Positions 3,923 to 61,452 of a DNA stretch of 64,000 bases are shown piece after piece. Position numbers and translations under genes: made by a program. Below the pieces are notes generated by a model. It saw nothing but the letters and a program-made list of their open reading frames with translations. It was not told the origin of the DNA and did no database searches. How positions within the stretch are numbered: the stretch's first letter is position 1; every line of letters begins with the position of its first letter. Where the stretch lies: the NCBI GenBank assembly GCA_944363885.1, contig CALVVO010000001.1, positions 4,865 to 68,864 on the forward strand, written 5' to 3'. The stretch is from an uncultured Bacilli bacterium. Its GTDB lineage: Bacteria > Bacillota_I > Bacilli_A > RF39 > UBA660.

Positions 3923-4360
3923 ATGATAGAAGTATATAATGAAACAAACAGCGACGCTTATATAAAAGACATAAAAAGTGTATTAAAACTTGGCTTAAAA
4001 CACATGAATATTAAAGATTCATATATAAGTGTAGTTATAGTTGACAAAGATAAAATACATGAAATAAATAAAACATACAGAAATGTAGACAAAGTAACAG
4101 ATGTCATTTCATTTGCATTTGAAGATAACGGGGGAATTACTCCAGATGGGTTAAGAATACTTGGCGAAATATACTTATGTATGGACAAAGCAAAAGAACA
4201 AGCCATTGAATACGGACACAGCGATAAAAGAGAGATATGTTATTTAGTTACACATGGACTATTACATCTACTTGGATATGATCACGAAAAAGAAGAAGAC
4301 AAAAAAGAAATGAGAATAAAAGAAGAAGAGATATTGGAGTTTTATGATGCGAATAGATGA
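3923..4360 (+). CDS. ybeY: rRNA maturation endoribonuclease YbeY
   Basis: 145 aa with the HGLLHLLGYDHE zinc-binding motif. Confidence 0.9.
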   Translation: MIEVYNETNSDAYIKDIKSVLKLGLKHMNIKDSYISVVIVDKDKIHEINKTYRNVDKVTDVISFAFEDNGGITPDGLRILGEIYLCMDKAKEQAIEYGHSDKREICYLVTHGLLHLLGYDHEKEEDKKEMRIKEEEILEFYDANR

Positions 4361-4748
4361 AAGAAAAAAATTAAGAGGAATTAAAAGACTAAAAAGCAGT
4401 TTAAAATTTGCTTTTGACGGATTAAAATACGCTTATAAAAATGAACAAAGCATGACAGTACACATAATCATTACCATATTAGTAATAATATTTGGTGTAA
4501 TATTTAAAATAAATAGTTTAGAATGGATTGCAGTCATATTTTGCATAGGTATAATGATGTGTTTAGAATTAGTAAACACTAGTATTGAAGCTGTAGTTGA
4601 TTTAGTCACAGAAAAATATAATGAAAAAGCCAAAGTAGCAAAAGACGTAGCTGCCGCAGTATCAGTTATGTTTAGCTTTACTTCAATAATAATTGGATTA
4701 ATAATATTTATACCAAAAGCAATTGAATTTATAAGGAGTATAATATGA
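4344..4748 (+). CDS. dgkA: Diacylglycerol/undecaprenol kinase
   Basis: 134 aa with three TM helices and the LELVNTSIEAVVDL motif of the DgkA family. Position after ybeY matches B. subtilis. Confidence 0.85.
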   Translation: MMRIDERKKLRGIKRLKSSLKFAFDGLKYAYKNEQSMTVHIIITILVIIFGVIFKINSLEWIAVIFCIGIMMCLELVNTSIEAVVDLVTEKYNEKAKVAKDVAAAVSVMFSFTSIIIGLIIFIPKAIEFIRSII

Positions 4749-5125
4749 AAGAAAAATTAGAAAAATTATTAAACAATAGTTACGCACCATATTCTGGTGT
4801 CCACTTTGCATGCATAGTAGAAACAGAAAACGGTAACTTTTATAGCGGAGTTAATGTTGAAAACGCATCATATGGTGGAACGATATGTGCTGAAAGAAAT
4901 GCAATCAATAATGCAATAGCGAACGGAGAAAAAAACATAAAAGTAGTTTATTTGATGACTGATAAAATAGATATTTGTTACCCATGCCATATATGTAAAC
5001 AAACATTCCTAGAATTTTTAGACAGTAAAGTTATATTTAATCTAATGACAAAAAACGGGAAAATGGAAGTTTTGACATATGAAGAGGTAATGAATAGAAA
5101 TTTTAGCAAGGAAGATTTAAAATGA
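4745..5125 (+). CDS. cdd: Cytidine deaminase
   Basis: 126 aa with zinc ligand motifs CAERNAI and PCHICKQ. Confidence 0.9.
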   Translation: MKEKLEKLLNNSYAPYSGVHFACIVETENGNFYSGVNVENASYGGTICAERNAINNAIANGEKNIKVVYLMTDKIDICYPCHICKQTFLEFLDSKVIFNLMTKNGKMEVLTYEEVMNRNFSKEDLK

Positions 5126-36880: not shown

Positions 36881-37660
36881 ATGAGGAAATTAAGTGATTT
36901 ATTACAAGAAGCTGGTGTTTCAAAAGTTAAATTGGCTAAATATTTAGGAGTATCAAGACAAATGGTTTACAACTATTTAGAATTAAACAGCATAGAAAAT
37001 TGGCCAAGTGAAAAGAGAATTTTAATATGCAAATTATTAGGTATAAGTGAAGAAAAACCAGATGAAGGCTTAGAAAAATTAAAAGTGACTGCCGAATTAA
37101 TGGAGGATATTGAAACAAGACTGGACGCAGCAAATAGGAATTCTAATAATGCAGATATTTATTTTAATATGAACAATTTATCAAAAGACGAACACACATT
37201 AATAAATGACCTTATCTTTTTAATTAAAGAGAAATTTAGCGATGAAAAAAACAAGGACACATATTACGAATTTTTATATTTATATCATGTGTTACAATCA
37301 ATAGATAATATACCTGAAATTAAGTACATATTTGCATACTTAAGCAAAACTTTAGGTTTAACAGATCCAAACGAATATAAATTTGATGAAAATTCACAAT
37401 TTATTTTAGAAAGCATAGTATTCACTGCAATGAACTTATATAATAATGGTGGAGCAACTAAAAGCAAACTTATTGCATCTCACGACAGATTTGTGCAAGA
37501 AATCGAAAGCAAAAAAGAAGAAGCTTTAAGTAGAACTCAACAAATAAACACTATAAAATTACAGGCATTAAGAGAATTAGGATATACTTCATTAACTAGC
37601 GAAAATGCTCAAGAAGTTTTAAATAAAATAGCAGAAATTGAAACAAGAAAAGTGGGATAA
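36881..37660 (+). CDS. Helix-turn-helix domain protein (putative regulator)
   Basis: 259 aa. N-terminal HTH (VSKVKLAKYLGVSRQMVYNYLE); the rest is uncharacterised. Confidence 0.5.
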   Translation: MRKLSDLLQEAGVSKVKLAKYLGVSRQMVYNYLELNSIENWPSEKRILICKLLGISEEKPDEGLEKLKVTAELMEDIETRLDAANRNSNNADIYFNMNNLSKDEHTLINDLIFLIKEKFSDEKNKDTYYEFLYLYHVLQSIDNIPEIKYIFAYLSKTLGLTDPNEYKFDENSQFILESIVFTAMNLYNNGGATKSKLIASHDRFVQEIESKKEEALSRTQQINTIKLQALRELGYTSLTSENAQEVLNKIAEIETRKVG

Positions 37661-37720
37661 ACAAATAGCTATTTTTCTACTTTCTCAACTTCCGATAATA
37701 TATATTATGTTAAGTTATAA

Positions 37721-38470
37721 CTAAAACAATAAATGATTAATTAATATTATCACTACTCCCAGCAACATACCCAACTTAATTTGCTTACCTTCATTATATT
37801 TAATAGCTTCTGGAAACAATTCATTTATAGAAATTGTTATCATAATTCCAGCAACTATTATTAATACATAACTTATTGTAAGCATATTTATATATTGTTT
37901 CAAAAAAAGAAATGCTACTATAGCCCCTAAGGGTTCAGCTAAAGCAGAGATAAACGTGTAAAGTATGCCCCTCCCCTTTTTACCCGTAGAATAGTAGAGT
38001 GGAACAGCTATGCTAATGCCTTCAGGTATATTATGCATCATAATAGCTAAACTAAGGCTTATACCAATACTTAAATCACTATAAGAAGTCATAAAAGTTG
38101 CAATTCCCTCAGGAAAATTGTGTAACATAAGTGCAATCATATTTAATATACCCAACTTAAAGAGGTTTGAATCTTTACTCTTGTTTACCTTAATATTTCT
38201 ATCTAATATGCTAACTAATATTGCCCCTACTATGAATAAAACAACCGTTATAATTATACTTTTAATCAAGCTAAAATTGCTATTTAGTTCAATAAAAGAC
38301 GATGGTAATAAATCAATTATTGAAATAGTTATCATAACACTCAAAGAAAAACTTAAACAAAATGATATGAATTTTTCTTTATTTTTAATTTTAAAAAATA
38401 CTATACAGCCACCTATTACTGTTGAAAGTCCAGCAATAGTTGTTATTATTAATGCTATTATCTCTCTCAT
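37721..38470 (-). CDS. zupT: ZIP-family zinc/metal transporter
   Basis: 249 aa with eight TM helices and HNFPEGIATF / HNIPEGISIAVP metal-binding motifs. Confidence 0.85.
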   Translation of the reverse strand: MREIIALIITTIAGLSTVIGGCIVFFKIKNKEKFISFCLSFSLSVMITISIIDLLPSSFIELNSNFSLIKSIIITVVLFIVGAILVSILDRNIKVNKSKDSNLFKLGILNMIALMLHNFPEGIATFMTSYSDLSIGISLSLAIMMHNIPEGISIAVPLYYSTGKKGRGILYTFISALAEPLGAIVAFLFLKQYINMLTISYVLIIVAGIMITISINELFPEAIKYNEGKQIKLGMLLGVVIILINHLLF

Positions 38471-38512
38471 ATTAAATATTATTTAAAACATTTTAATTAA
38501 TTACTCCTTATC

Positions 38513-45442: not shown

Positions 45443-45690
45443 ACGTACTCCAAATCATAAAAAAGCCCAAAGATACGACTGCCGTTTAAATAAATCTCGC
45501 CGTAGACGAGGTGGTAAGCAACATAATGCCATTAGGATTCTTAGTAAACTAAGCATTCAACACAGCACATTAATTATGCTCCCAAGAAAATTAAATAGTC
45601 GGTTTATTTGTTACGACAATCATTATCTTCAGGTAATTTTATTATATCATATATTTATAAAAAATATACTTAAAGCGTAAAATCTTTACA

Positions 45691-53412: not shown

Positions 53413-55784
<2,372 letters not shown>

Positions 55785-55785
55785 A

Positions 55786-57366
55786 TCATTCCTCCATATC
55801 ATTTTTAATTTCTTGGACTATTTTATCACTTGGTACAATTATATCTGCGGTTTTATTATTAAATCCTATAATTACAAATCCATTTCTATTTAATTCATCA
55901 AATACTTTATCACTTTTTATTTTATCTATAGCAGTATCATATATTTTGTTTAATGTTACAAAAGATTTATAATCAAATTCTATTTGATTTCTATCATAAT
56001 ATAGAGCATTTAAAATTTTTTTAATTAACTCAACCAATTCAATAGAATTCAAACTAGTTTTAACATTCCTAACTTCAACTAATTTTTTATCTAAATAGTT
56101 AACCCAAAGATATTTACTACTTATTGTTCTTTGATATTTACAATACTCTTCAAAATCCCAAATAAATTTGTACTGCTTGTAAATATTTTCTTCAAAATAA
56201 TTTTCTTTTTCACTTAATAAAGCCATTAACTTTTTATGAGATTCAATTGGATTTGTAACATCATATTGATTAAAATTCATATGGATGCCGCAATTTTTTT
56301 CAGAAGATACTTGTATTATTCCTTTTGAAAAAATCATTATTTCTTGTAAATTATTCCAAAATTCATAAATTTCTTCTACTTTTAAAGGATCCAAAACTAT
56401 CTCAAATGAATAGTCTCCTATAATTGTACCATCTTTAACAAAATATCCATTTTCACCAACTAATTCTTTTATATTTGCAAGTAATTTTTTTGTAAAAGAA
56501 TATTTATCTCTTTCAAGAGTAACGGAAACCTCTATTTCTAGACCAACTTCGTCATAAGCAATTTTTTCTTTTAATTTTCTTTCATAACCAAATGCAGGTT
56601 TTATATCCAATACCTTATCAAATTTTGCTTCATAATCAAATTTATTTTTTCTAGTATTTCTAACAACTGCTTTTTTCCCCTTTTTATCCTTAAAAATAAC
56701 AGAAGAAAACTTAGATTTATTTTCTAAATAATTAATAACTCCAAGTATGGCATTTATTAGGTTAGAAACCTGCGCTTTATTCTTATGAAAATTTCTATTT
56801 TTCTGACCTATCTCTAATTGAATTGATTTTACACCAGTATCTTTATGTATTCTAGAACATATAGTCCTATTATGCGATCTATAAATTTTATCAATCGTAA
56901 CAGTCCCTAAAGAATATTTATTTAACTCTTTTACAATATCTTTTACAAGTTTTTTATCATTATTAACATTTTTAAATTCATTTACTCCAATATCTAAATC
57001 AGTAATTTCATTTATAGCTAAAGAATGAATATCAATAACATAATCAATATTATTACTTCTCACATATTTTTTTAAATATTCATAATAAAAATTATTCTCT
57101 TTATCATAGTTTGGGTCATAATCAATCTCTTTATTAATATACATAACATGGCAATTTGATAATTCTGAAATAACCCTAATTAAAGAATATGTCAAATAAT
57201 CTTTGCTTTTATTTTCACCATTTTTTTCGTGAGTAAAAGTATGAGGCGCTGACAACAAAATATTATTTGTTCCTTTTTTACAGTTTATTTCCTCAAATTT
57301 CACTAAATTTTTATCTTTTCTATGACTTTTTAAAAGTTTTCTAAATTCTTTTAGCATTTTCACCAT
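55786..57366 (-). CDS. Uncharacterised 526-aa protein, possible N-terminal amidohydrolase-like domain, partner of the ATP-grasp ligase
   Basis: It overlaps the queA stop by 26 nt and is coupled to the ATP-grasp gene. The N-terminal approximately 210 aa carry ILLSAPHTFTHE...YVIDIHSL...IQLEIGQ. The C-terminal approximately 300 aa have no recognisable motif. Confidence 0.55.
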   Translation of the reverse strand: MVKMLKEFRKLLKSHRKDKNLVKFEEINCKKGTNNILLSAPHTFTHEKNGENKSKDYLTYSLIRVISELSNCHVMYINKEIDYDPNYDKENNFYYEYLKKYVRSNNIDYVIDIHSLAINEITDLDIGVNEFKNVNNDKKLVKDIVKELNKYSLGTVTIDKIYRSHNRTICSRIHKDTGVKSIQLEIGQKNRNFHKNKAQVSNLINAILGVINYLENKSKFSSVIFKDKKGKKAVVRNTRKNKFDYEAKFDKVLDIKPAFGYERKLKEKIAYDEVGLEIEVSVTLERDKYSFTKKLLANIKELVGENGYFVKDGTIIGDYSFEIVLDPLKVEEIYEFWNNLQEIMIFSKGIIQVSSEKNCGIHMNFNQYDVTNPIESHKKLMALLSEKENYFEENIYKQYKFIWDFEEYCKYQRTISSKYLWVNYLDKKLVEVRNVKTSLNSIELVELIKKILNALYYDRNQIEFDYKSFVTLNKIYDTAIDKIKSDKVFDELNRNGFVIIGFNNKTADIIVPSDKIVQEIKNDMEE

Positions 57367-58399
57367 CTCCTATTTTATCTGTAATAAACATCGCATCACC
57401 AAAGCTAAAAAATCTGTAATTATTCTTTACTGCTTCATTATATGCTGACAAAATAATTTCTTTACTAGATAATGCACTAACAAGCATAAGTAATGTACTT
57501 TTTGGCAAATGAAAATTAGTAATTAATGCGTCAACTGCTTTAAATTCATATCCAGGATAAATAAAAATATCAGTTTCTTCCCTAATTGCTTTAAATTTTC
57601 CGTATTTACTAATGTTGCTTTCTAACGTTCTAACACTTGTAGTACCAACACAAACTATTCTTCTCTTTTCACTTTTAGCTTTATTTAACTTAGTAGCAAC
57701 TTCTTCCGTTATTTCATACTCTTCTGAATGCATAACATGTTTAGTAACATCTTCTACATTTACAGGTCTAAATGTGCCAAGTCCAACATGCAATGTGATA
57801 TAAAGTACTTCTATTCCCTTATTTTCAATTTCTTCTAATAATTCATTTGTAAAGTGCAAACCAGCAGTTGGTGCTGCAGCACTACCATTTATTTTAGAAT
57901 AAACTGTATTATATCTATCTTTGTATTTAAGTTTTTCATGAATATAAGGCGGTAATGGCATAGTGCCTATTTTACTTATTATTTCTAAAAATACGCCTTT
58001 ATAATCAAATTTAATATGAGTTATTCCTTCTTCTTTTATATCTATTACTGTCCCAGTTAACTCGTCAGAAAATATTAATTTAGTTCCAATTTTTAATCTT
58101 TTTTGTTTTCGTGCCAAACACTCATAAACATCTTTATCTATCTCTTTTAAAAGCAATATTTCAATCGATGCTTTAGTATCTTCTTTTATAGCATAAATTC
58201 TAGATGGTATAACTCTTGTGTTGTTTAAAACTAAAACGTCTCCTTTATTTAGATAATTAATTATATTAAAAAACTTCTCATGAATAATTTCACCAGTAAT
58301 TTTATCCAAAACTAAAAGCTTTGAAAAACTCCTGTTCTCCAAAGGACTTTGCGCAATTAAATGTTCAGGTAAAAAATAATCAAAATCACTTGTTTTCAT
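57341..58399 (-). CDS. queA: S-adenosylmethionine:tRNA ribosyltransferase-isomerase
   Basis: 352 aa from MKTSDFDYFLPEHLIAQSPLENR with a typical QueA N-terminus. Full-length colinearity with QueA. Confidence 0.9.
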   Translation of the reverse strand: MKTSDFDYFLPEHLIAQSPLENRSFSKLLVLDKITGEIIHEKFFNIINYLNKGDVLVLNNTRVIPSRIYAIKEDTKASIEILLLKEIDKDVYECLARKQKRLKIGTKLIFSDELTGTVIDIKEEGITHIKFDYKGVFLEIISKIGTMPLPPYIHEKLKYKDRYNTVYSKINGSAAAPTAGLHFTNELLEEIENKGIEVLYITLHVGLGTFRPVNVEDVTKHVMHSEEYEITEEVATKLNKAKSEKRRIVCVGTTSVRTLESNISKYGKFKAIREETDIFIYPGYEFKAVDALITNFHLPKSTLLMLVSALSSKEIILSAYNEAVKNNYRFFSFGDAMFITDKIGDGENAKRI

Positions 58400-58457
58400 T
58401 TTTAACTCCTTTAAAAAACAAAGTTATTATACTTTGCTTTTTAACATATGTAAAGAT

Positions 58458-59532: not shown

Positions 59533-61452
59533 TTATTGTCTAACATATTTATGTTGAACTAGATAGTCAATAATAAATTGCATTTTTTCTTCAGTTGAAG
59601 CACCTGGATTTGTAACTTGATAATATTCTTCATAAGCATCAGCTAATACTCCAGCCAAATCACTAGGTATTGCATAAAATTTCAAATAATAGTCAATATT
59701 TTTAACATTAGTCATAATTGTATCTAATTTACTATCCATACCATTTAATTTAGTAGTAATATTATCAATATTAGTATTTAATGTTCCTAATATATTATTA
59801 TTTTCTTCAACAGTAGTCTTAATTTCAGCAAGTGATGTAGTGAAATCTTGTGTTCTTTGATTTAAAACACTATATCTACCTCTTTCATCAGAAGCTAAAG
59901 TTGCTAAATTTGTACCAAGATCTTTGATATCTTGTCTTATTACATTTTGTCTACCAACGGCATTTGATTCATATGTTGCTAATGAAGATTTTACATCATT
60001 TATTCCATTTATAACGTCATTTGTATTTTTAGATAATGAAGTTATAGAGCTAGAAATATCAGAAAGTGATGATTCTATTCTTGAATTAACTATACTTAAA
60101 TTTCTAAATGAAACATTTACAGTTGATGTTAAATCATTTAATGAACCCTCAATTCTATTTGTTACTATACTCAAATTATTTAATGATGTCCTTGTTTGAT
60201 TAGCATGAGTAGTTAATGTATTTTTAATTCCATTTGTTACTGTACTCAAATTATTTAATGATGTCCTTGTTTGATTAGCATGAGTGGTCAATGTATTTTT
60301 AATTCCATTTGTTACTGTACTCAAATTATTTAATGATGTCTTTGTTTGACTAGCATGAGTAGTTAATGTATCTTTAATTCCATTTGTTACTGTACTCAAA
60401 TTATTTAATGATGTCTTTGTTTGATTAGCATGAGTAGTTAATGTATCTTTAATTCCATTTGTTACTATGCTTAAATTATTTAATGATGTTCTGTTTTCAA
60501 CTATAAATGAATTTAAAGAACTTTGAACATTGTCAATTTTATCACTTAAGAATAATGTATTATTTGCATTATCCTCTAATATTGTCTTTTCTGCATTATC
60601 AATATTATTATTTATTGAATTCATGCTATTAGTAATCATGTTACCTAAATGAGTTCTTGTGTTATTTAAGTCAGTGTGTATTGCATTTTGACTATTAGTA
60701 ATCATATTACCTAAGTCTGTACGCAATGCATTTTCACTATTAGTTATTACATTTGTTAAATGATTTCTTGTGTTACTTAAATCTGTATGTATTGCATTTT
60801 GACTATTTGTAATCATATTACCTAAGTCTGTACGCAATGCATTTTCACTATTAGTTATTACATTTGTTAAATAATCTCTTGTATTACTTAAATCTGTATG
60901 TATTGCATTCTGACTATTGGTAATCATATTACCTAAATGATTTCTTGTATTATCTAAGTCAGTATGTATTGCATTTTGACTATTAGTAATCATATTACCT
61001 AAATGAGTTCTTGTGTTATTTAAGTCAGTATGTATTGCATTCTGACTATTAGATAAAGCAGTTAATAATGCAGATCTTGTATTATTAATATTATTATCCA
61101 AATTAGTATAATTTGTATTTATTAGAACTGTTAAAGCATCTGTTTTTTCAGTAAGACTCTTATCTAATAAATAATATTTTGAACTAATATTAGAATTAAT
61201 ACTTGATTCTGAATCATTAATGTTTTCAATAATTTCATCTTTTGATTCAGTCACAGCTTCATTTAATTCAGTAGTTTGTTTATTATTATTTTCATCTAAG
61301 AATTCAATTTTATCAAGCACATTTGGAATTGAATTACCATTGATATCAAATAATTTTGCAAGAGACAAACCAAGTAAAGTAAATAAAGCAACTAAAATTA
61401 CAACAACTACTACAATTTGTAGTGTTTGATTTTTTTGTTTTTTATTTTTCAT
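59533..61452 (-). CDS. Membrane-anchored Asn/Thr-rich tandem-repeat protein
   Basis: 639 aa with an N-terminal TM anchor (IVVVVVILVALFTLLGLSL). It has about eight 22-aa repeats (ITNSQNAIHTDLxNTRxHLGNM) and then five 25-aa repeats (TSLNNLSTVTNGIKDTLTTHANQTK). The C-terminus is a unique approximately 140-aa domain. Confidence 0.55.
   Translation of the reverse strand: MKNKKQKNQTLQIVVVVVILVALFTLLGLSLAKLFDINGNSIPNVLDKIEFLDENNNKQTTELNEAVTESKDEIIENINDSESSINSNISSKYYLLDKSLTEKTDALTVLINTNYTNLDNNINNTRSALLTALSNSQNAIHTDLNNTRTHLGNMITNSQNAIHTDLDNTRNHLGNMITNSQNAIHTDLSNTRDYLTNVITNSENALRTDLGNMITNSQNAIHTDLSNTRNHLTNVITNSENALRTDLGNMITNSQNAIHTDLNNTRTHLGNMITNSMNSINNNIDNAEKTILEDNANNTLFLSDKIDNVQSSLNSFIVENRTSLNNLSIVTNGIKDTLTTHANQTKTSLNNLSTVTNGIKDTLTTHASQTKTSLNNLSTVTNGIKNTLTTHANQTRTSLNNLSTVTNGIKNTLTTHANQTRTSLNNLSIVTNRIEGSLNDLTSTVNVSFRNLSIVNSRIESSLSDISSSITSLSKNTNDVINGINDVKSSLATYESNAVGRQNVIRQDIKDLGTNLATLASDERGRYSVLNQRTQDFTTSLAEIKTTVEENNNILGTLNTNIDNITTKLNGMDSKLDTIMTNVKNIDYYLKFYAIPSDLAGVLADAYEEYYQVTNPGASTEEKMQFIIDYLVQHKYVRQ
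60100..61080. repeat. Two families of in-frame coding tandem repeats (approximately 66-bp and approximately 75-bp units)
   Basis: The 75-bp units recur near 60171, 60251, 60331 and 60411. The 66-bp units recur across approximately 60550-61080. Confidence 0.7.

Follow-up and report, generated by a model that had tools for sequence, protein, structure and literature searches.

Background

Ligases with the glutamine synthetase (GS) fold, among them GS itself, GCL, PuuA, GmaS and PafA, couple an amine to a glutamyl carboxylate that they first activate, and gamma-glutamylation pathways add a paired hydrolase. The Amidoligase_2 proteins (PF12224) are common in phages, and their usual partners are a GAT-like thiol peptidase or an AIG2 cyclotransferase; this GS-like 'COOH-NH2 ligase' family and its pairings of ligase with peptidase were reportedly predicted by Iyer, Abhiman, Burroughs and Aravind in 2009. 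Here we describe a gene, called X, from a 64,000-nucleotide stretch of DNA of an uncultured Bacilli bacterium (GenBank assembly GCA_944363885.1, contig CALVVO010000001.1, positions 4,865 to 68,864 of the forward strand; "the window" below). It joins a predicted zinc amidohydrolase to a predicted ligase of the Amidoligase_2 kind and lies between queA and tgt, two genes of the queuosine (Q) pathway.

Among tRNA modifications, queuosine alone is widely salvaged and traded in gut communities, and the bacterial route to it is deemed essentially complete. We know of no tRNA modification handled by a salvage logic of protecting, retaining and deprotecting. No amide ligase or amidohydrolase is assigned to the queuosine pathway in the literature searched, and no account of the system treated here emerged from literature searches that paired queuosine, preQ1 or queA with amidoligase, ATP-grasp, FGase or gamma-glutamyl.

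Gene X and its two modules

Gene X occupies 55786..57366 of the window on the minus strand, stop codon included. Its ATG-to-stop open reading frame (ORF) encodes 526 amino acids (aa) and contains the strings ILLSAPHTFTHE, YVIDIHSLAINE and IQLEIGQKNRNF, by which an earlier note, made from the letters of the window, had described this protein. Chance origin of such an ORF is unlikely, since stop codons are common in AT-rich DNA and the G+C content of the window is about 25%. Homologues number 37 in a first search and 107 in a search with a profile of the C-terminal domain, and tblastn verified X loci in 36 species-representative genomes, a degree of conservation that marks X as a genuine gene. 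The sources are all uncultured low-GC gut Bacilli, variously labelled Bacilli, Bacillota, Tenericutes or Erysipelotrichia; a batch of loci labelled "Muribaculaceae" has the same Bacilli-type synteny, and these labels are probably submitter errors.

The protein had been called an orphan, which is apt in that no curated family model matches it above threshold: NCBIfam models gave no match, and in Pfam the FGase model (PF05013) reached 13.5 bits (E=0.08), below its cut-off of 28.9. The term is nevertheless misleading, as homologues exist and both halves of the protein can be assigned to families. The family alignment shows two modules separated by a variable Lys-rich linker, the C-terminal one also being found standalone. 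The linker (residues ~216-245; 56632..56721, minus strand) is recognized from the gap pattern in alignment columns ~233-262 and from low model confidence, with predicted local distance difference test (pLDDT) values of 44-53 at the end of the N-module model and 66 at the start of the C-module model; it contains an insertion confined to the fused proteins of the type A arrangement described below. X and the domain profiles gave only noise against PDB sequences, so that kinship to solved structures is seen at the level of the fold only. We are very confident of the identities of the two domains and of the intactness of their active sites. The "EE" at the C-terminus of X was considered as a RimK-type acceptor tail and rejected, being not conserved among the homologues.

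The N-module (residues 1 to ~215; 56722..57366, minus strand) is firmly predicted to be an FGase/PghP-like zinc amidohydrolase, which may carry out Zn-dependent cleavage of an N-acyl or gamma-glutamyl amide. Its AlphaFold2 (AF2) model is confident (pLDDT 91) and has the alpha/beta fold common to FGase, PghP and the M14 carboxypeptidases, so that the guess of the earlier note, an amidohydrolase or zinc-hydrolase fold for the first ~210 residues, proved correct. The candidate site residues are H42, H46, H73, D84, D112, H114, E185 and R191. Conserved His, Asp and Glu residues, candidates for the metal ligands that this guess implied, do occur: among 40 hydrolase copies P41 is kept in 39, H42 in all 40, H46 in 30, H73 in 36, D84 in 39, D112 in 38 and H114 in 39, while Q183 is present in 39/39 and E185 in 38/39, and R191 is nearly invariant. 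Within the PH..H and D.HS segments picked out earlier by eye, P41, H42, H46, D112 and H114 are therefore conserved, but the Ser is not, being mostly Gly. PghL and PghP bind zinc through His, Glu and His, with an additional His and a catalytic Glu (PMC6506827), and H42, H46, H73, H114 and E185 of X stand in the same order as the corresponding site residues (H40, Glu45, H78, H103 and E165 in PghP).

The profile of the N-module also retrieved 32 standalone relatives of ~200-220 aa (E from 1e-33 to 1e-45), 13 of which have precomputed PF05013 hits. The tie of the N-module to PF05013 is thus transitive, carried by these relatives and not by the window protein. Over 34 family members, Pfam detected FGase in 4 (best E=4.5e-5) and Gamma_PGA_hydro in 8 (best E=0.003).

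The C-module (residues ~246-526; 55789..56631, minus strand) was the half of which the earlier note said that its ~300 residues matched nothing recognizable. Profile searches, predicted fold and phage matches now point to a divergent GS-fold carboxylate-amine ligase of the Amidoligase_2 type, a family assignment that we consider firm. The AF2 model (pLDDT 89) has the catalytic fold of glutamine synthetase, GCL and PafA, and in comparison with viral models the best matches are phage proteins annotated "Amidoligase enzyme". The C-module motifs are GLE277-I-E279, R286, D312-x-T314, FE322, C359-G-x-H362-x-N364-x-N366, H377 and E431-x-R433-N434, followed by an alpha/beta tail of ~80 aa. Their order presumably matches GS residues E129/E131, E212/E220, H269 and E357/R359, a correspondence by motif order.

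The C-module family is very small: hmmsearch with the C-domain profile against 1.84 billion representatives gave 94 matches at E<=1e-3, of which 30 reach E<=1e-10. At the remote end (E 6e-8 to 2e-5) the matches are PF12224 proteins, 8 of the 9 tested scoring above the 22-bit gathering score (24.7-43.7 bits). Pfam found no PF12224 match in the window protein at E<=1, and weak ones in 9 of 34 family members (best E=0.0028). Residues E277, E279, R286, D312, T314, E322, C359, H362, N364, N366, H377, E431, R433 and N434 are invariant in 42/42 active ligase copies, and duplicated 'pseudo-ligase' copies have lost the ligase site residues, a pattern which argues for selection on catalysis. With a GS-fold ligase as its C-terminal half, X carries its own 'writer'. 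Since both active sites are invariant, the role of pure scaffold, one of two that had been suggested for X, is unlikely; the other, that of an 'eraser', is plausible for the N-module.

Genomic context and fusion with QueA

What the earlier note left out is the main contextual clue, namely that X lies between queA and tgt and that in 18 species its hydrolase forms one protein with QueA. The minus-strand gene order in the window is trx, queA, X, ATP-grasp, tgt. The first Q gene, queA (57341..58399, minus strand), encodes the tRNA preQ1(34) S-adenosylmethionine ribosyltransferase-isomerase (PF02547, E=6e-134; NF001140, 471 bits), and its last 26 nucleotides (nt) are also the first of X. The end of X in turn overlaps by 17 nt the start of a gene for a 301-aa RimK-family ATP-grasp alpha-L-glutamate ligase (54897..55802, minus strand; PF08443, E=3e-30), which scores 149.4 bits with TIGR00768, above the cut-off of 143.4. 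Last comes tgt (53708..54907, minus strand; PF01702, E=9e-153; TIGR00430, 503 bits), the tRNA guanosine(34) transglycosylase gene.

Locus architectures were tabulated over all loci from tblastn matches of the window proteins. The modules lie between queA and tgt in ~27 of the 36 species-level loci, despite QueA identities of 57-68% among most of these. In type A (the window and L007, L008 and L009) the order is queA, fused N- and C-modules, ATP-grasp, tgt, and L010 and L001 have the same order without the ATP-grasp gene. In type B, found at 18 loci, QueA and the N-module form a single ORF of 552-568 aa, followed by a standalone C-module (283-293 aa), ATP-grasp and tgt; L032 is otherwise of type B and has the N-module as a separate gene. 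In type C (L003, L020 and L022) queA is followed by a standalone C-module, an N-module joined to a pseudo-C-module that has lost its ligase residues (432 aa), ATP-grasp and tgt. Type D comprises solo N+C genes in unrelated housekeeping contexts (L006, L011-L016 and L018), with L041 split into two ORFs.

In none of these arrangements is the hydrolase parted from the C-module ligase; the two always travel together, fused or adjacent. The ATP-grasp gene accompanies X in 25 of the 36 loci and is absent from ~10, including L001, L010 and all the solo loci, and is an optional third component. The earlier note had taken the ATP-grasp enzyme as the ligase partner of the hydrolase; the constant partner is instead the C-module. 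The idea of a writer-eraser pair of ligase and hydrolase remains plausible, but with the writer placed in X itself.

Of particular interest is the fusion, in which the hydrolase module is in frame with the C-terminus of a full-length QueA. The ORFs were read directly in four loci (L026, L021, L025 and L031), and public gene calls hold QueA-hydrolase proteins of 552, 560 and 564 aa, one cluster having 44 members from NCBI, ENA, JGI and Logan; direct reading and independent calls together rule out an artefact of the ORF caller. In the fusion proteins Pfam recognizes a complete Queuosine_synth domain (residues 1-344), whereas the ~210 aa after it give essentially no match, which would explain why the fusion has been overlooked so far. 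In many deposited "QueA" proteins, a hydrolase domain of ~210 aa has thus gone unannotated.

A neighbour-joining tree built on the ligase module shows a monophyletic type B with type C as its sister, a separate clade for type A, and L001 (queA-X-tgt) nested among the solo genes. Placement between queA and tgt is therefore found in at least three deep clades and spans the deepest splits of the family.

Comparison with a sister-species locus, L026, further reveals that X and the ATP-grasp gene form a replaceable cassette of ~2.5 kb (54875..57400, minus strand), delimited by sharp drops in identity. In 150-nt windows, nucleotide identity is 84-97% down to ~57,400, falls to 35-69% from there to ~54,875 (~55% for the cassette), and beyond that is mostly 93-99%, with one window at 86%. 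The flanking proteins of L017, L026 and L029 (those of cvpA, trx, queA and tgt, and a 104-aa protein) are 92-99% identical to those of the window, but the hydrolase is only 35%, the ligase 45-46% and the ATP-grasp protein 39-40% identical, and the architecture is B, not A. Conversely, L008 has a tgt 85% and an X 92% identical to those of the window, as against 96% and 45% in L026, so the phylogeny of X is incongruent with flank similarity. The sharpness of the boundaries implies that the cassette was swapped whole, its limits falling exactly where queA ends and tgt starts.

Several further copies of the modules were seen. L021 has an extra divergent FGase-like paralogue of 316 aa (4023-4973) directly upstream of its QueA-hydrolase fusion gene, and L019 a second N-module match (4314-4919) in the same position; tandem double-FGase proteins (P0037, P0118 and P0130) occur elsewhere in these bacteria. 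The neighbourhoods of the standalone FGase-like relatives P0119, P0126 and P0130 contain nothing Q-related. The solo X of L018 (55-1494) bears D112N, H114Y and E185G at the hydrolase sites with its ligase residues intact, and may be a ligase-only derivative. At L003 (8878-10176; also in L020 and L022), an intact hydrolase module is followed by a degenerate ligase module, with substitutions E277K, E279N, E322S, H362T and N364R, beside an active standalone ligase, and the 734-aa protein P0150 unites hydrolase, pseudo-ligase and active ligase in one chain; the pseudo-ligase may be a scaffold or regulator. A divergent ligase subgroup with shorter proteins (230-242 aa; P0112-P0117, e.g. from 'Bacilli bacterium PM5-3') lacks the ~80-aa tail and has NIK in place of NFN. 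In four of the solo loci (L006, L011, L012 and L014) the conserved neighbours of X are different ones, namely ffh and a gene for a DUF2207-like membrane protein; X is adjoined there by a small Cys-rich repeat protein (MFNKCCQPRMNMCCEPR…), downstream in L011, L012 and L014 and upstream in L006.

A possible role in queuosine metabolism

We think it fairly probable that the cassette is functionally tied to queuosine or 7-deazaguanine metabolism, and it may act on a 7-deazaguanine base or on Q-family tRNA. The best explanation of the whole, which we advance tentatively, is that bifunctional X and the ATP-grasp enzyme form an accessory module of the queuosine pathway that acylates and deacylates preQ1. 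The 7-aminomethyl group of preQ1, free or at tRNA position 34, might then be reversibly acylated with glutamate or oligoglutamate, the minimal GS-fold ligase and the RimK-type ligase adding the acyl group and the QueA-tethered hydrolase taking it off, a scheme that is possible but somewhat doubtful; with equal reserve, the cassette could mark new queuosine chemistry. The specific proposal, masking and unmasking of the preQ1 amine, is if anything more doubtful. It singles out preQ1 because its aminomethyl is the only primary alkylamine of the pathway and carries the atom alkylated by QueA.

In this scheme the C-module ligase would join a carboxylate to an amine with ATP, acylating the exocyclic aminomethyl amine of salvaged or synthesised preQ1; the acyl group would most likely be gamma-glutamyl, by analogy with other GS-fold ligases. 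The ATP-grasp enzyme, where present, would then add an alpha-linked glutamate cap, a step known for cofactors from CofF and MptN. Acylation would trap or buffer the preQ1 base, Tgt would accept the N-substituted preQ1, and the N-module hydrolase would then strip off the acyl group, restoring the free amine for QueA. The purpose might be retention and buffering of a scarce salvaged base, comparable to the polyglutamylation of folate and F420, or the timing of QueA action. Such a scheme accounts for a hydrolase fused to the ligase, as in the window, or to QueA, as in 18 relatives. Many gut Bacillota are without QueDECF and salvage preQ1 or preQ0 (PMC11130926), and Tgt of E. coli is broadly tolerant of preQ1 derivatives (PMC10103133), which together make acylation of preQ1 feasible. 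The tight packing of the genes, with overlaps of 26 and 17 nt, the best promoter-like site lying upstream of queA, the recurrent location between queA and tgt, the fusion to QueA and the nearly invariant active sites lend it support.

A number of observations weigh against this proposal. There are 8 or 9 solo-X loci without adjacent queA, tgt or ATP-grasp, so that adjacency to queA and tgt is not obligatory. The flanking synteny (cvpA, trx, DUF421, murJ-like) is largely conserved as well, and the association could thus be, in part, gene order inherited within one lineage; loss of a stop codon can create fusions in compact AT-rich genomes; and no transporter, riboswitch or additional Q gene accompanies the cassette. 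The position equivalent to Glu45 of PghP, a candidate for the third zinc ligand, is His (H46) in only 30 of 40 copies and Gln in 7. That sister species have swapped the cassette is not typical of a housekeeping function. To make and cleave one and the same bond would seem futile unless ligase and hydrolase are kept apart by time or by the state of the substrate (free base vs. tRNA), and the assignment of preQ1 or tRNA as that substrate is speculative.

It is unlikely, in our view, that the cassette is unrelated to queuosine, as a generic gamma-glutamyl/peptide-tagging or amine-detoxifying module, like those predicted where Amidoligase_2 or RimK is paired with a peptidase, lodged ancestrally between queA and tgt, whose product would be a small Glu metabolite, a protein poly-glutamate tail or an envelope component and whose fusion to QueA would be a by-product of gene overlap. 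Such a module would suit the solo copies outside the Q locus, two of which (L006 and L018) have a Mur-ligase gene nearby, and the broad flanking synteny, through which its position could be inherited. Among characterised hydrolases, the closest take N-formyl-Glu or poly-gamma-Glu as substrate, RimK glutamylates ribosomal protein S6 (the ATP-grasp protein matches phrog_2599, named 'S6 glutaminyl transferase'), and no other Q-related accessory gene is found with the cassette. It would leave unexplained, however, why the QueA-hydrolase fusion is kept in 18 species with QueA 57-65% identical to that of the window, and in 44 variants within one cluster, why placement between queA and tgt recurs in several deep clades with the solos interspersed, and why an exchanged cassette was replaced precisely at the same site. 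Nor does the cassette contain a carrier-protein or precursor-peptide gene, for which its overlapping genes leave no room. ORF clustering over 38 loci for a transporter, carrier protein or precursor peptide found that only syntenic housekeeping genes recur, and the insertions in L019, L025 and L031 are unrelated singletons.

Distinctly unlikely, though computationally indistinguishable from the masking of preQ1, is a writer and eraser acting on tRNA, in which the ligase, with or without the ATP-grasp enzyme, would add an amino acid to preQ1-, oQ- or Q-tRNA as the end product. This would be a novel Q-family nucleoside, an amide analogue of glutamyl-Q, and its reversal by the hydrolase would tune the decoding of NAU and NAC. 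The operon and the QueA fusion speak for it equally, as does the constant co-inheritance of ligase and hydrolase; GluQ, made by GluQRS, is an established precedent for a Q that bears an amino acid. The basic N-module and ATP-grasp protein could bind RNA, and the ~80-aa tail of the ligase, absent from the shorter subgroup, could be a docking domain, but Pfam detects no RNA-binding domain. Against this reading, QueA leaves behind a hindered secondary amine, Q offers no carboxylate, and a stable mark on preQ1-tRNA would compete with QueA, yet it is the eraser that is fused to QueA.

Highly improbable is a conflict or immunity module that chemically modifies the wobble base of the Q family, or a precursor of it, as an escape from anticodon nucleases, phage or competitor factors: diversifying selection would explain divergent cassettes replacing each other in sister species, the sharply bounded swap (~55% nucleotide identity inside vs. 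84-99% in the flanks) and the incongruent X tree, and Amidoligase_2 proteins are abundant in phages, but neither of the two modules of X nor the ATP-grasp protein matched a PADLOC-DB model at E<=1, PHROGs gave no match for X, the cassette holds no mobile-element, toxin or nuclease genes, and with only two or three architectures, and proteins well conserved within each type, it is not hypervariable. Amidoligase_2 proteins do co-occur with genes of nucleobase hypermodification (PMC8989533).

Other features of the window

The ORF of tgt opens with a 24-aa hydrophobic extension that lies outside the alignments with most homologues, which begin at residue 22-25. Translation probably starts at M25 (54835), in which case the apparent overlap with the ATP-grasp gene disappears. 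We take the window Tgt to be of the bacterial preQ1 type, its DEC...P and GGVSVGE motifs presumably giving Cys158 and Val233. The isoelectric points of the N-module (9.5) and the ATP-grasp protein (9.7) are both basic, which would suit acidic substrates, a weak indication.

The gap between trx and queA contains the best promoter-like site, TTTACA-17-TATAAT, with 11/12 matches (58426..58454, minus strand), a candidate promoter for the operon. Promoter-like sites are in total not above the expectation from shuffled sequence, and this one is therefore only suggestive. From the queA-X junction to where tgt ends, no terminator-like site was found on the minus strand, the sole one lying within the coding sequence of queA. 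An Rfam scan of the window gave no preQ1 riboswitch and matched only 6S RNA (45460-45638, minus strand; RF00013, 47.4 bits vs. a gathering score of 46.4).

Elsewhere, 59533-61452 on the minus strand encodes a 639-aa protein with an N-terminal transmembrane segment and two families of ~20-25-aa tandem repeats (…NTR.HLGNMITNSQNAIHTDL… and …TKTSLNNLSTVTNGIK.TLTTHANQ…). By the blastn pattern, the number of repeats in the window is not the same as in L026, L017 and L029, and the protein is likely a variable surface protein. Cumulative GC skew peaks at ~37,000-38,500, and genes lie on the plus strand over 1-37.6 kb and on the minus strand over 37.7-64 kb, a convergent arrangement which, with the skew peak, suggests a region like a replication terminus.

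Comparison with known systems

The N-module shares only 14-16% identity with FGase (PF05013; 2q7s, 2odf) and with PghP, PghL and YndL (PF05908; 3a9l, 5onj). The second metal ligand of FGase and PghP is Glu, whereas the N-module has His or Gln there. It resides in the cytoplasm and shares an operon with genes for tRNA modification, while FGase and PghP serve in histidine catabolism or capsule degradation, and fusions to an amide ligase or to QueA have not been described for either.

The C-module differs from PF12224 as described in its partners, an FGase-type Zn hydrolase, fused or adjacent, together with a RimK-like ATP-grasp enzyme, and in its extra ~80-aa tail and its embedding between queA and tgt; a GATase or AIG2 gene occurs in none of the loci. 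Gamma-glutamylation of amines is known for putrescine (PuuA/PuuD), for methylamine (GmaS) and from aniline/1-naphthylamine GS-like ligases (8wwu, 9qur). The ligases of these pathways are full-size GS homologues of ~430-490 aa, oligomeric and catabolic, with GATase-type hydrolases. X has, in contrast, a minimal ligase domain of 285 aa, a metallo-hydrolase and a tRNA-modification context.

The ATP-grasp protein passes TIGR00768, and its next-best models are MptN, LysX and CofF. Unlike these enzymes, it falls far below the cut-offs of all equivalog models, that of the RimK S6 ligase included (107 bits vs. 350 for MptN). The LysX...LysK pathway is a precedent for an amine that is protected by ligation, transformed, and released by a metallo-hydrolase. 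The LysX/ArgX system differs in that no gene for a LysW-like carrier is found here and the ATP-grasp enzyme is optional.

None of the queuosine enzymes (QueA, Tgt, QueG/H, GluQRS, QueK, QueL, Qng1 and QPTR/QueT) is homologous to X. What X shares with the pathway is its location between queA and tgt and the physical fusion to QueA, with GluQRS as a precedent for the addition of glutamate to a Q-family base. If the proposed acylation of preQ1 is true, the queuosine pathway of a genome-reduced, uncultured and little-known gut lineage would gain new enzymes and possibly a new 7-deazaguanine conjugate or tRNA nucleoside, or else a salvage logic of protection and release, and the large, uncharacterised Amidoligase_2 family its first concrete substrate context. 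The constituent superfamilies and the predicted ligase-peptidase pairings are already known; new are the pairing of an FGase-type hydrolase with a minimal Amidoligase_2 ligase, the fusion to QueA and embedding between queA and tgt, and the restriction of the whole to a lineage of uncultured gut Bacilli.

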